A stretch of DNA of 40,605 nt from Candidatus Binatia bacterium (GCA_035542755.1 DATKKU010000041.1:1-40605), one strand, 5' to 3'. Shown: positions 2,694 to 14,168, counted from the first letter of the stretch. Notes: a model not told the origin generated them from the letters alone. A program made the numbers and translations.

Positions 2694-2735
2694 AAAATTT
2701 GCAAAAAATTGCTAAAGCGGATTTTTGCAAATTTT
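2694..2735. promoter_or_regulatory. AT-rich palindromic box (14-bp perfect arms AAAATTTGCAAAAA / TTTTTGCAAATTTT), putative bidirectional promoter or operator
   Basis: Read directly, with a 14-nt spacer. It is flanked on the left by the tRNA-Leu leader (minus strand) and on the right by module copy B. Confidence 0.5.
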
Positions 2736-2821
2736 GAAGGAGGAGCAGCCGATAGCTGGAGACACGAAGCAAGCTTGTCAAAATATGATTCGTCGTCGCA
2801 AGCTTTAGGCTTGCTCCGACG
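2736..2821 (+). repeat. stable-RNA-associated structured module, copy B (subfamily 1)
   Basis: GAAGGAGGAGCAGCCGATAGCTGGAGACACGAAG...TTCGTCGTCGCAAGCTTTAGGCTTGCTCCGACG is colinear with copies A and C. It abuts the CCA end of the opposite-strand tRNA-Cys. Confidence 0.7.
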
Positions 2822-2895
2822 TGGAGGCGCGTACGAGATTCGCACTCGTGTAAAAGGTTTTGCAGACCTGTGCCTAACTCCTCGGCCAACGCGCC
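2822..2895 (-). tRNA. tRNA-Cys(GCA), CCA encoded
   Basis: Reverse complement GGCGCGTTGGCCGAGGAGTTAGGCACAGGTCTGCAAAACCTTTTACACGAGTGCGAATCTCGTACGCGCCTCCA. Acceptor stem is GGCGCGT/ACGCGCC and the anticodon loop is CTGCAAA. The T-loop is TGCGAAT (non-canonical second base) and the anticodon stem has one C-T mismatch. Confidence 0.8.
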
Positions 2896-3022
2896 ACAAA
2901 AATATTGCCTATCAGCCTCCAATTATACAAGATAAGGGGTGACTTATGGTTGCCAATTAGCGGCTCAAGCGGTACGATTTAAGCGTAATTGACAAAATAA
3001 AAGCGGTGGGCAAGGAGGGGTA

Positions 3023-3163
3023 ATGAACGTTTGGGACTGGAACTCACCCATCGCACTAAGCATTTTTTTTGTGGGCCTGGCGCTTAGCTTTGCACTGTTT
3101 AGCTGGGCCGTAAAAAACTTCGCCAGCATTGGCGGCTCAACAAACCAAAAACGCGGCCGCTAA
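3023..3163 (+). CDS. 46-aa single-pass membrane peptide (below the ORF-track cutoff)
   Basis: AAGGAGG (3012-3018) lies 4 nt before ATG 3023. The product is MNVWDWNSPIALSIFFVGLALSFALFSWAVKNFASIGGSTNQKRGR, with stop TAA at 3161-3163. A hairpin terminator follows 18 nt later. Confidence 0.5.
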   Translation: MNVWDWNSPIALSIFFVGLALSFALFSWAVKNFASIGGSTNQKRGR

Positions 3164-11550: not shown

Positions 11551-13568
11551 ACGAACCACAAAAGCAGCGGGCGGCTCGCTTGCGCGAGTTGATTAACGAC
11601 TATCGGTACAATTACCATGTTCTAAACAAGTCAATCATGAGCGAGGCCGCAGCCGACAGCTTAAAACACGAGCTCAGCCAGCTTGAGGCCAAACATCCCG
11701 AGCTTGTTACCTCAGATTCTCCCACGCAGCGAGTTGCCGGTCAGCCACTACCAGGTTTTAAGCAAATTCGTCATAGTTCCCGTATGCTGAGCCTCAACGA
11801 TGTGTTTAACCAGCAGGAAATTGAGGCCTGGCTAGAGCGCATAACTAAGCTATTGCCAAAGGCTGCCAAGCCGGACTTTTTTGTGGACCTAAAAATGGAT
11901 GGCCTGGCCTGTGCCCTAGTTTATGAAAATGGAAGTTTAACTCAGGCCGTGACGCGCGGCGACGGATTTGTCGGCGAGGATGTTACGGCCAACGTCCGCA
12001 CCATTGAGTCAATTCCGCTTAGCCTGCGCCGGACTAAACAAAGCGGACAGTTTCTCAACGGGCGCACCGAAATTCGCGGCGAAATAGTCATGTACAAACG
12101 GGATTTTGATAGCCTAAACCAAACTCGCGAAAAGCAGGGCCAGCCCAAATTTGCCAACCCTCGCAATCTAGCCGCCGGCACCATCCGCCAGCTTGACCCG
12201 GCGCTGGTTGCTGCACGGCCGCTGCAGTTTCACGCTTATGACCTAATACCCGAGAGCGCCGGGCAGGTACCGACCAATGACTTTGCCTATAAGTCGCTGA
12301 GAGACTTAGGCCTAATTGCCAACCCCGAAGCCCGCATGGTTAAAAGCGTTGAGCAAATTATGGACTTTGCTAAGCAGTGGGAGGATAAGCGCCGCGACCT
12401 GCCATTTAATACGGATGGCTTGGTTATTAAACTCAACGACCGCCAACTGTTTGCCCAGCTAGGCGTAGTCGGCAAGGCGCCGCGCGGCGCTGTAGCGCTA
12501 AAGTATTCCGCCGAAGAGGCCACGACAGTCGTCAAAGATATTGTTATTAGTATCGGGCGGACCGGTGCCGCCACACCAGTGGCCGTTTTTGACCCGGTAC
12601 AGGTTGCCGGTACCACCGTTCAGCACGCTAGTCTACATAATGCCGATGAGATTGCTCGTAAAGACGTGCGGGTTGGCGACACCGTGATAATTTTTAAAGC
12701 TGGTGATATTATTCCGCAGCTCAGCCGGGTGCTGCTTGAGCTTCGTCCAAAATCGGCTAGTGCCTTTGATATGGAGGCCGAGCTAAAGCGCCAGTATCCG
12801 GAACTTGAATTTGTGCGGCCAGCCGGCGAGGCGGTCTACCGGGTTAAAGGCGTGACCGGCAAACTTTTACTAAAAAAGGCTCTAGAACATTTTGCCAGCA
12901 AATCTGCCCTGGATATTGATGGTATGGGTGAGAAAAATGTCGCGGCTCTGGTTGATGCCAAACTGGTAGACGACCTGGCCGATATCTACAATCTAAATCA
13001 AACCCAGGTTGAGGGGTTGGACCGCTTCGCAAAGCTGAGCGCCAGCAATCTTATCAAGGGCATAGATGCATCCAGACAGCCGGATTTGGCCAGATTTGTC
13101 TATGGGCTAGGCATACGTCACGTTGGTGTACAGACAGCAATTGACCTAGTTAATCATTTTGGCTCGCTAGATAAGTTGGCCGGCGCTACCCTGGACCAGT
13201 TGATGGAGGTGGAGGGCGTGGGCCAAGTTGTAGCCGAGTCTATTTTGGGCTGGTTCGCCGACCCCGACAACCAGGAACTGCTAAAAAAATTTGAGCAGTT
13301 AAATGTAAAGCCGACGCACCACAATCCCGCCGGTGGCAAATTGAGCGGTAAAAGCTTTGTAGTTACGGGAACGCTGGGAATAATGAGCCGGGAAGAGGCT
13401 GCTGAGCGCATCCGGTCACAAGGCGGGACGTTCCAGAGTTCGGTCGGCAACGACACCGACTATCTGGTTGTTGGCGCTAACGTTGGCGCATCAAAACTCG
13501 CCAAGGCTAAAAAGTTGGGCACCAAACAGATATCCGAGACAGAATTACTTAACATGTTAAGTAAATGA
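11547..13568 (+). CDS. ligA: NAD-dependent DNA ligase LigA
   Basis: Adenylation motif DLKMDGLA, OB fold, HhH repeats, and a C-terminal BRCT (GKSFVVTGTL). The GTG start overlaps the upstream stop. The four Zn-finger cysteines are absent (see findings). Confidence 0.95.
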   Translation: MNEPQKQRAARLRELINDYRYNYHVLNKSIMSEAAADSLKHELSQLEAKHPELVTSDSPTQRVAGQPLPGFKQIRHSSRMLSLNDVFNQQEIEAWLERITKLLPKAAKPDFFVDLKMDGLACALVYENGSLTQAVTRGDGFVGEDVTANVRTIESIPLSLRRTKQSGQFLNGRTEIRGEIVMYKRDFDSLNQTREKQGQPKFANPRNLAAGTIRQLDPALVAARPLQFHAYDLIPESAGQVPTNDFAYKSLRDLGLIANPEARMVKSVEQIMDFAKQWEDKRRDLPFNTDGLVIKLNDRQLFAQLGVVGKAPRGAVALKYSAEEATTVVKDIVISIGRTGAATPVAVFDPVQVAGTTVQHASLHNADEIARKDVRVGDTVIIFKAGDIIPQLSRVLLELRPKSASAFDMEAELKRQYPELEFVRPAGEAVYRVKGVTGKLLLKKALEHFASKSALDIDGMGEKNVAALVDAKLVDDLADIYNLNQTQVEGLDRFAKLSASNLIKGIDASRQPDLARFVYGLGIRHVGVQTAIDLVNHFGSLDKLAGATLDQLMEVEGVGQVVAESILGWFADPDNQELLKKFEQLNVKPTHHNPAGGKLSGKSFVVTGTLGIMSREEAAERIRSQGGTFQSSVGNDTDYLVVGANVGASKLAKAKKLGTKQISETELLNMLSK

Positions 13569-14116
13569 ATGTAGTTTTTGTAACCGGCAATGCCAACAAG
13601 GCCAGGTATTTCTCGGAACTGATTGGCCTTCCTATAAAGCATATGCCGGCGGACGTTGAAGAAATCCAAAGCCTGGATCTAAAAGAAGTTGCCGAGCACA
13701 AAGCCCGGTCGGCATACAAACAGTTAAAACGGCCAGTTATAGTTGAAGACGTTGCTATGCAGGTAAATTTCTTGGGCAAGTTACCAGGCCCGTTTATAAA
13801 ATGGTTCATAGAGGAAATAGGGCTGGAAAAAATTTGCCGACTGGCCGACGCTAGTGAAGACCGCGGCGCCATAGCCTCCTGTGTGTATGCCTATTACGAT
13901 GGCAAGTTGCTCAAACTGCTTGAGGGCAGTTTAAGTGGTACCATTGCAAAGCACCCCAGGGGTGCTGAAGGTTTTGGCTGGAACCCAACCTTTGTTCCAG
14001 AGGGCTCGGAGCAGACTTTAGCCGAGATGGATGAGCCAACGTTTAAAAAGTTCTATATCCGTATCAAACCCATTCCTCAGCTAAAGGAGTTTTTGACCGG
14101 ACTTGATAAAATATAA
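13565..14116 (+). CDS. rdgB: non-canonical purine NTP pyrophosphatase (RdgB/HAM1 family)
   Basis: VFVTGNANKARYF N-terminus and FGWNPTF motif. There is a 4-nt overlap with ligA. Confidence 0.88.
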   Translation: MNVVFVTGNANKARYFSELIGLPIKHMPADVEEIQSLDLKEVAEHKARSAYKQLKRPVIVEDVAMQVNFLGKLPGPFIKWFIEEIGLEKICRLADASEDRGAIASCVYAYYDGKLLKLLEGSLSGTIAKHPRGAEGFGWNPTFVPEGSEQTLAEMDEPTFKKFYIRIKPIPQLKEFLTGLDKI

Positions 14117-14128
14117 GCCGTCTTCTTA

Positions 14129-14168
14129 CAATTTTACAAAATTCTGCACGCAATATTTTGTAAAATTG
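14129..14168. promoter_or_regulatory. AT-rich palindromic box (14-bp perfect arms CAATTTTACAAAAT / ATTTTGTAAAATTG)
   Basis: Read directly, with a 12-nt spacer. It lies immediately upstream of module copy D and tRNA-Ala(CGC). Confidence 0.55.

Follow-up and report, generated by a model that had tools for sequence, protein, structure and literature searches.

AT-rich palindromic boxes beside tRNA genes of a Saccharimonadales bacterium as the probable first hairpin of a conserved leader cassette

Contig DATKKU010000041.1 (assembly GCA_035542755.1), all 40,605 nucleotides of which are called the window here, carries four AT-rich perfect palindromic boxes next to tRNA genes. A first-pass annotation had proposed a dimeric factor that binds the boxes as DNA, or else a bidirectional promoter dedicated to stable-RNA genes. 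The link to stable-RNA genes was confirmed throughout the genome, whereas the proposed mechanism was not supported. With moderate confidence, we read each box as the first hairpin (P1) of a structured promoter-plus-leader cassette of about 120 nt that would be transcribed at the 5' ends of tRNA and transfer-messenger RNA (tmRNA) genes, have a stabilizer-type role, and be removed by RNase P.

Results

The window is contig C41 of a 761-kb genome (50 contigs; G+C content, 0.50; completeness, 91%), and an exact-pattern scan of one genome per species placed the organism in the Saccharimonadales (Saccharibacteria/TM7). An exact inverted-repeat census and the sequence itself bore out the positions and the arms of the four boxes (Table 1). 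Nine perfect inverted repeats (arms, 12 bp or longer; loops, 3 to 22) occur in the window, whereas 100 dinucleotide shuffles averaged 0.02 and never held more than 1; the four boxes are far above chance expectation. The boxes at 5131 and 14129 have the same arm sequence. Each box is followed, as had been described, by a (G)AGAGGA-type sequence, with a tRNA 5' end 76 to 85 nt further on (Leu-UAA, Val-UAC, Gly-GCC, and Ala-CGC, among nine window tRNAs identified with ARAGORN and Rfam). The second, oppositely oriented module claimed for box 2694 is also present and abuts the 3' end of tRNA-Cys in antisense, the junction reading CTCCGACG followed by TGGAGGCGCG. Two other statements held only in part. 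Box 6452 does lie between tRNA-Phe and tRNA-Gly, but it has a module on the Gly side only. Similarly, tRNA-Gln and tRNA-Ala-GGC have TATAAT directly upstream, but the tRNAs with a box also have a TATAAT-like -10 element, located upstream of the box, and the promoter contrast drawn between the two groups is not real.

We counted copies across the genome with an nhmmer profile built from clear cases and confirmed them with a covariance model, R1 (E values from the shortened calibration are rough). There are 21 full copies of box plus leader. In seventeen, the last base is -1 or -2 of a same-strand tRNA, and in one it is -1 of the tmRNA (module end at 10858 of contig C32, tmRNA at 10857 to 10450). 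Two abut a tRNA CCA end in antisense (tRNA-Cys in the window and tRNA-Thr(CGU) on contig C20), and the remaining copy, at 377 to 490 on the minus strand of the window, has no tRNA or Rfam match after it. About half of the tRNA genes (41 in total by ARAGORN), plus the tmRNA gene, carry the folded leader. A genome-wide search for the box alone gave the same picture, as the perfect CAATTT-type AT-rich boxes, 11 in number, are without exception 75 to 90 nt away from the 5' end of a tRNA or the tmRNA. The boxes are therefore a family dedicated to stable-RNA genes in this genome, and the association with tRNA and tmRNA genes holds in related genomes too. The module is absent from the leader of the 16S rRNA; 5S rRNA was not found in the genome, and 23S rRNA was not searched for. 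A 16S leader without the module suggests that the cassette targets RNase P substrates and not stable RNAs as a whole. That leader (contig C20, ~26070 to 26272; locus L044, 1300 to 1500) has a TTGACT-18-TAGTAT promoter and a boxA-like GCTCTTTTTGAAG.

All copies of the cassette take the same fold, in the order P1, linker, rod hairpin, and tail. P1 has 11 to 15 bp, is usually AU rich with a small GC-closed tip, and in the predicted fold is often lengthened by a pyrimidine-rich 5' flank that pairs with the linker. The linker has the Shine-Dalgarno (SD)-like consensus (G)AGAGGAGGA. Within the rod, GGAAGCGAC pairs with GUCGAUUCC to form P2 and GGCY pairs with RGCC to form P3, P4 has a variable tip, and an internal loop sets GNAA opposite GGA. 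There are two rod subtypes, type A (GGAAGCGAC...) and type B (GGAGCAGCGAAAAGCUGGAG...GCAAGCUGAUAGCUUGCUCCGACGA). The tail, CCGACGA, is predicted to be single stranded over its 7 nt and places its last base at -1 of the tRNA.

The compensatory changes between copies support a common RNA fold. RNAalifold predicted 34 pairs from 12 copies, with compensatory changes in 21 of them. In 46 model-aligned hits from other genomes, 94.9% of the cells were paired and both sides had changed in 33 of 34 pairs (13 of 14 in P1); these values are inflated by the fitting of the alignments to the model and by the relatedness of the sequences, but the margin is large nonetheless, as they were reached by none of 500 shuffles and as slid-partner controls were 32 to 44% paired. 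The most conserved positions of the cassette are unpaired bases, namely, the linker, the G.A/GGA loop, and the GACGA tail.

Several lines of evidence suggest that the box acts as RNA and that P1 is most likely transcribed. The arm sequences of P1 vary from copy to copy with their complementarity kept (CAATTTTACAAAAT, CAAAAATGCGAG, CAAATTGAAAC, ACCGCTGAAAATGC, CCCCATTGTTT, and, in a distant genome, ACCGCUGAAAAUGC), a pattern that marks a hairpin and not an operator recognized by its sequence. The half-site conservation expected of a dimeric operator was not found, the arms being unrelated in some of the genome's own copies (Asp, Lys-UUU, Ser-CGA, and window 461 to 490) and in genome G140. Mismatches are strand asymmetric. 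Within P1 of the genome's own copies, they are U-G or G-U (in the Arg-GCG, Arg-UCU, Pro-CGG, Lys-CUU, Leu-UAG, and Thr-GGU copies), with no A-C seen by eye, and in 33 distinct sense copies from relatives the G-U:A-C ratio is 42:17 (P = 0.0015 [by a binomial test, uncorrected for relatedness]) and 16:5 in P1 alone, as counted in model-fitted alignments of related sequences. Moreover, of 18 own copies, 16 fold more stably in sense than as the reverse complement, with a mean difference of 7.1 kcal/mol.

The position of the promoter elements points the same way. A -10-like hexamer (at least five of six matches to TATAAT) ends 8 to 29 nt upstream of P1 in 12 of the 21 copies, compared to 9.2% of random genomic positions, and an upstream -10 element was assigned by eye in nearly all sense copies of relatives; a -10 element upstream of the box would put the box inside the transcript. 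This element is often followed by (C)TCTGTT. The combined motif TAnnnT-N3-5-YCTGTT also stands directly before tRNAs that have no leader, and many of its 54 matches in the genome are directly before tRNA genes (e.g., window 6423 to 6437 and 29693 to 29709). The G of CTGTT is a plausible start site. On contig C42, two TATAAT boxes stand back to back, one leading directly to tRNA-Ser(UGA) and the other to P1, the leader, and tRNA-Ser(GCU).

Given these data, we consider it very improbable that the box works as DNA, whether as an operator bound by a dimeric protein or as a promoter that serves stable-RNA genes in both directions. Such a role would fit the perfect symmetry of the box, the high conservation across genera of the commonest arm (AATTTTGCAAAATT), the TAAAAT- or CAAAAT-like hexamers in the right arm, and the presence of copies in tRNA-tRNA spacers without an upstream -10 element, as well as the modules that flank box 2694 on both sides. 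Modules on both sides are seen at just one of the four boxes, however, and one of that pair runs into tRNA-Cys in antisense. Inside the box, the TTGCAA/TTTACA-like and TAAAAT/CAAAAT-like hexamers are, by eye, about 21 to 23 bp apart rather than at the 16 to 19 bp of a -35/-10 pair, and they are wholly absent in several P1 variants (Asp, Lys-UUU, and window 461 to 490). The wholesale replacement of arms, the G-U mismatches, and the -10 element upstream of the box in most copies are likewise at odds with a DNA site. P1 was also considered as an intrinsic terminator and rejected, as it is AU rich and followed by AGAGGAGG without a U tract, and canonical terminators sit separately.

The orientation of the module follows a rule, in that its CGACG(A)-tail end is always toward a tRNA gene. 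This includes a sister class, type D, with an 11-bp P1' carrying the hexaloop GAGGAU, the linker AAGAGCAGCAAC, and a rod (CCCCGCUAAAUUUGCGC...), which abuts tRNA CCA ends in antisense. In the genome under study, type D copies abut the 3' ends of tRNA-Val-CAC, -Arg-CCU, -Met, -Ser-UGA, -Trp, -Thr-GGU, and -His and of a partial copy of tRNA-Arg-UCG. A type D covariance model matched 17 of the 24 sampled genera of the family and three other families. Among 28 aligned hits, TGG comes next in 26, and ARAGORN placed a tRNA 3' end on the opposite strand there in 17. Read in the module's own direction, i.e., antisense to the tRNA, the type D ratio of G-U to A-C is 55:9, again as counted in model-fitted alignments of related sequences; all eight own copies fold better in that direction, and most copies have, by eye, a -10-like hexamer upstream of P1'. 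Type D cassettes may thus be transcribed toward, and antisense to, the tRNA. Three arrangements of this kind are present in the window, at 2736 to 2821 (tRNA-Cys), at 5172 to 5326 (tRNA-Leu(GAG), type C), and at 377 to 490. Type C is a third dispersed structured repeat (AGGGAAAGGTAGTAGCC...GTTGAAGGAAAACCGCTAGGTTGTCCTTCAA), found before a tRNA, after a tRNA in antisense, and near protein-coding genes. Its copies, located by blastn, are at C29:11433-11503, C43:7338-7425, and C6:6515-6554, with a sense copy before the tRNA-Met gene of contig C37 (9388 to 9464).

Of 24 genera sampled in the family, 20 had the R1 leader, as did 7 of 16 further families in the order. Among 150 genomes sampled across the phylum it occurred in six, five of them outside the order, and in these distant Patescibacteria it was again located at tRNA genes (six hits at the 5' end in sense and three at the 3' end in antisense). 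Hits in relatives number 39, of which 29 lie exactly 5' of a sense tRNA and several more lie at locus edges or before tmRNA. Modules before tRNA-Arg(CCU) from three genera cluster together, and some copies cluster by genome, which suggests both vertical descent and copying within genomes. Exact-pattern matches in Arthrobacter, Akkermansiaceae, and Alistipes were dismissed as chance, as the covariance model matched none of them. A blastn search with one module against 50,697 phage records gave no match. In Rfam 15, only tRNAs reached the gathering score in the window, and at E values of up to 1 (window 1 to 3000) nothing credible covered the modules; a full-text literature search returned no account of a conserved tRNA leader in Saccharibacteria or in the candidate phyla radiation. 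The cassette would be an uncatalogued folded RNA, outside any named family.

Discussion

We suggest the following mechanism for the cassette. A TATAAT-type promoter, in many cases with (C)TCTGTT after it, would set the transcription start a few to about 25 nt ahead of P1, which would fold in the RNA and often be extended by pairing between the 5' end and the linker. The purine linker AGAGGAGG would be exposed and able to form 8 bp with the 3' end of 16S rRNA. The rod hairpin (P2-P3-P4), with its conserved purine-rich internal loops, would come next, and the single-stranded 7-nt tail would reach -1 of the tRNA, where RNase P would remove the whole leader. P1 and the SD-like site would protect the 5' end in the manner of the aprE and cryIIIA stabilizers (stabilizer SD [STAB-SD]), and the precursor, the released leader, or both would be long-lived. 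Transcription, RNase P cleavage, and the stabilizer role are all inferred from sequence.

This proposal draws on the gene content of the organism and on the placement of the parts. Module ends coincide with tRNA and tmRNA starts, and RNase P RNA is present (211.6 bits). RNase J (487.9 bits) and RNase III are present and RNase E/G was not found in the 91%-complete genome; together with the extension of P1 by the linker and the SD-like site, this leads us to favor protection of the 5' end. A stabilizer of this type has its stem-loop within a few nucleotides of the RNA 5' end; in the cassette, the -10 element ends 8 to 29 nt before P1, and the 5' flank often pairs with the linker and so extends P1. 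The linker AGAGGAGG is complementary to the 16S rRNA 3' end of the relative G009 (GGAUUACCUCCUUUCU) and could form 8 bp, one of them G-U, with its tail ACCUCCUUUCU (the genome's own 16S 3' end is not assembled). In the copies inspected by eye, the SD-like linker has no start codon after it. A 5' stem-loop with a ribosome-binding site stabilizes the aprE and cryIIIA leaders without translation, as cited in PMC3997798 (its references 106 and 109). No hammerhead or other self-cleaving core, K-turn, box C/D motif, or small open reading frame (ORF) after the SD-like site fitted the conserved positions when these were examined by eye. A sponge for CsrA/RsmA was rejected as well: GGA occurs in the linker AGAGGAGGA and in the hexaloop GAGGAU, but CsrA (PF02599) was found in none of 41 genomes.

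A number of observations weigh against a leader that serves its own tRNA. Four of the 21 copies have no upstream -10 element (Val-UAC, Leu-UAA, and the two antisense copies), all in spacers between co-oriented tRNAs (Cys to Leu-UAA, Leu-GAG to Val-UAC, and Thr-CGU to Gly-CCC), where the RNA could come from read-through or from inside the neighboring module. About half of the tRNAs make do with leaders of roughly 5 to 25 nt, so that a need in cis is not obvious, and the SD-like linker may be conserved only for its pairing with the pyrimidine-rich transcript start. Type D modules point antisense into tRNA 3' ends, which a leader serving only its tRNA does not explain. The set of tRNAs that bear a module differs between genomes, some copies cluster within a genome, and partial tRNA duplications adjoin modules (C49:12277-12613 and C39:287-664); all three hint at mobility or recombination. 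The duplications consist of a 41-nt 5' copy of tRNA-Leu(UAG) with an 83-nt inverted module remnant ahead of the full gene on contig C49 and of a 22-nt 3' copy of tRNA-Arg(UCG) about 190 bp from the full gene on contig C39. They look like recombination or integration scars at tRNA genes.

It is unlikely, in our view, that the cassettes are independent small transcription units with the RNA as their product, the RNA being ended by or paired with the tRNA on the 5' side and, on the 3' side, by a mirror tRNA or a duplex with the mature tRNA. We hold it quite unlikely that the module RNA is either a product or a regulatory driver of antisense transcription, in which case the module 3' end would be set by the tRNA or its mirror image, acting as a signal for processing or pairing; antisense cassettes might then down-regulate their tRNA. 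An RNA product or antisense driver would best account for the orientation rule, which is kept in distant Patescibacteria, and for type D, given its placement at CCA ends, its excess of G-U on the strand antisense to the tRNA, the better folding of all own copies in that direction, and the -10-like hexamers upstream of P1'. The highly conserved unpaired bases (AGAGGAG, the G.A/GGA loops, and GACGA) suggest a common partner. On the other hand, the strand difference in energy is small in type D, G-U counts in minimum-free-energy folds are alike on both strands, and no partner protein was identified, with CsrA not found.

We likewise give a rather small chance to the module being a structured repeat, selfish or once mobile, or a recombination site that folds as a single strand. 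Such an element would accumulate at tRNA gene ends because tRNA processing takes it out of the RNA harmlessly, and P1 would be one of its terminal hairpins. The differing sets of module-bearing tRNAs between genera, the finding that some copies have their nearest relative within the same genome, and the partial tRNA duplications beside modules are all in keeping with such an origin, as is the occurrence of both orientations with the same module end always against the tRNA gene; G-T wobbles, moreover, are also tolerated in folded single-stranded DNA. Descent and constraint argue against it. The tRNA-Arg(CCU) modules of three genera cluster as vertical descent would have it, strong purifying selection acts on pairing and on unpaired bases across the whole order, and most copies have promoter elements upstream. 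Neither terminal inverted repeats nor target-site duplications were seen by eye, and the 91%-complete genome yielded neither a reverse transcriptase nor a Y1 transposase nor TnpB. With no match to PF01797, PF07282, or PF00078 there, an active IS200/IS605-type miniature inverted-repeat or palindrome-associated transposable element (MITE/PATE), TnpB, and a retroelement were rejected.

The transcribed leader that we favor resembles several known systems in part, and its working would be most like that of a 5' stabilizer joined to an RNase P leader. Like the aprE leader and the cryIIIA STAB-SD, a concept cited from PMC3997798, it would have a stem-loop near the 5' end followed by a strong SD-like sequence without an ORF, in hosts with RNase J and no detected RNase E. 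Those leaders are single mRNA loci of Firmicutes, whereas the cassette has about 20 copies per genome before tRNA and tmRNA genes, adds a conserved rod hairpin, and ends exactly at the RNase P site; stabilization by the cassette is proposed by analogy. Both the cassette and the 5' leader of an ordinary pre-tRNA stand directly 5' of the tRNA or tmRNA +1 position, the last 7 nt of the cassette are predicted to be single stranded, and RNase P RNA is present. Ordinary bacterial pre-tRNA leaders are short, unstructured, and not conserved between genes. The cassette, in contrast, is about 120 nt long, strongly structured, common to many tRNAs, and found order-wide. The rRNA operon leader (boxB, boxA, and boxC) likewise opens a stable-RNA transcript with a hairpin that is followed by a conserved linear motif, but the linker AGAGGAGG is not boxA-like and tRNA units are too short to need antitermination.

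Other comparisons concern repeats and composite transcripts. The RtT repeats of Escherichia coli tyrT (RF00391; no match in window 1 to 3000 at E values of up to 1) are structured, tied to tRNA transcription units, and freed by tRNA processing. They lie 3' of one enterobacterial tRNA operon, unlike the cassette, which is genome-wide and on both sides of tRNAs. REP/BIME, ERIC, Correia, and BOX elements share with it a high copy number, hairpin formation, cotranscription, and occurrence in either orientation. These elements lie between protein-coding genes with no fixed junction, whereas the cassette abuts tRNA and tmRNA ends to the base, with fixed polarity and conserved unpaired motifs. In MALAT1/mascRNA and in dicistronic tRNA-small nucleolar RNA genes, as in the cassette, a structured noncoding RNA is directly upstream of a tRNA fold and RNase P would make its 3' end, but those are eukaryotic single loci and the downstream partner of the cassette is a genuine tRNA or its antisense.

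Genomes of about 0.7 to 1 Mb have little spare DNA, and yet some 30 such elements are kept across the order and beyond. Their retention points either to a genuine function in the production, timing, or protection of stable RNAs or to an unusually successful genomic parasite that exploits tRNA processing. Either outcome would be a new RNA family and a handle on the almost unstudied RNA metabolism of Saccharibacteria. In annotation, the boxes should not be labeled promoters or operators. If the cassettes were independent units, Patescibacteria would couple abundant structured RNAs displaying an SD motif to tRNA genes, and antisense transcription would be driven into about a quarter of the tRNA genes.

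Other features of the window

The features of the window are listed in Table 1. A fifth cassette, located with nhmmer, lies outside the span covered by the first-pass annotation. Its P1 (461 to 490) is richer in G+C and has the hexaloop GAGGAU, its rod (378 to 460) is type B, and the -10 element TAATAT stands at 503 to 508 on the minus strand, on which TGGTGGTCTTAAC... comes after the cassette. On the plus strand near 377, something ends in GACCACCA, resembling a tRNA-type 3' end. Window 1 to 377 contains no tRNA and no Rfam match and has no similar DNA among 30 relatives; an open-ended ORF spans only 2 to 277.

Table 1. Coordinates of the cassettes and adjoining genes in the window, with the type D loci of the genome
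Feature	Position	Strand	Remarks
Fifth cassette	377-490	-	R2 match 377-489 (-), E = 4.9e-7
tRNA-Leu(UAA)	2532-2616	-	5' end at 2616
Linker AGAGGAAAAGC, rod hairpin, and tail; leader of tRNA-Leu(UAA)	2617-2693	-	nhmmer E = 1.9e-15; R1 62.3 bits
Box 1, P1 hairpin	2694-2735	.	Perfect arms 14 bp, spacer 14 nt; common to two divergent modules; R1 matches on both strands, 2618-2735 (-) and 2694-2822 (+)
Type B rod module	2736-2821	+	CCGACG tail abuts CCA end of tRNA-Cys in antisense
tRNA-Cys	2822-2895	-	
tRNA-Val(UAC)	4979-5055	-	5' end at 5055
Linker AGAGGAGGAAGCGAC, rod P2-P4, and tail GATTCCGACGT; leader of tRNA-Val(UAC)	5056-5130	-	Best R1 match, 5056-5171 (-), 126.3 bits, includes box 2
Box 2, P1 hairpin	5131-5171	.	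Perfect arms 14 bp, spacer 13 nt
Type C structured repeat (AAGGGGAAAGGTAGTAGCC...)	5172-5326	+	From box 2 to CCA end of tRNA-Leu(GAG), antisense
tRNA-Leu(GAG)	5327-5411	-	
Promoter-like TACAAT-GT-CTCTGTT	6423-6437	+	15 nt upstream of box 3
Box 3, P1 hairpin	6452-6493	+	Perfect arms 12 bp, spacer 18 nt; R1 match 6452-6577
Linker AGAGGAGGAGC, type B rod, and tail CTCCGACGA; leader of tRNA-Gly(GCC)	6494-6577	+	
tRNA-Gly(GCC)	6578-6654	+	5' end at 6578
-10-like TAAAAT/TATAAG	14107-14117	+	12-17 nt upstream of box 4
Box 4, P1 hairpin	14129-14168	+	Perfect arms 14 bp, spacer 12 nt; R1 match of cassette 14129-14246, 117.5 bits
Linker, rod, and tail; leader of tRNA-Ala(CGC)	14169-14246	+	
tRNA-Ala(CGC)	14247-14323	+	5' end at 14247
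Type D loci, own genome	C12:17690, C35:4129, C37:8680, C42:2206, C44:8824, C26:9973, C39:10644, C39:287; window 461-490		

Canonical bidirectional intrinsic terminators with A-run and T-run flanks are located at 2499 to 2529 and 4941 to 4980, 1 to 3 nt past tRNA-Leu(UAA) and tRNA-Val(UAC). An Rfam Trp_leader match at 2432 to 2531 (33.8 bits, under the gathering score) overlaps the first of them and is probably spurious. Candidate leaderless or near-leaderless mRNAs were also seen, with GCGTAAAAT-N6-ATG ahead of smpB and of a 17-codon ORF (C16:1210-1240 and ~1030-1100), and a similar leaderless-type arrangement stands in the window at 499 to 523, ahead of the ORF at 521.

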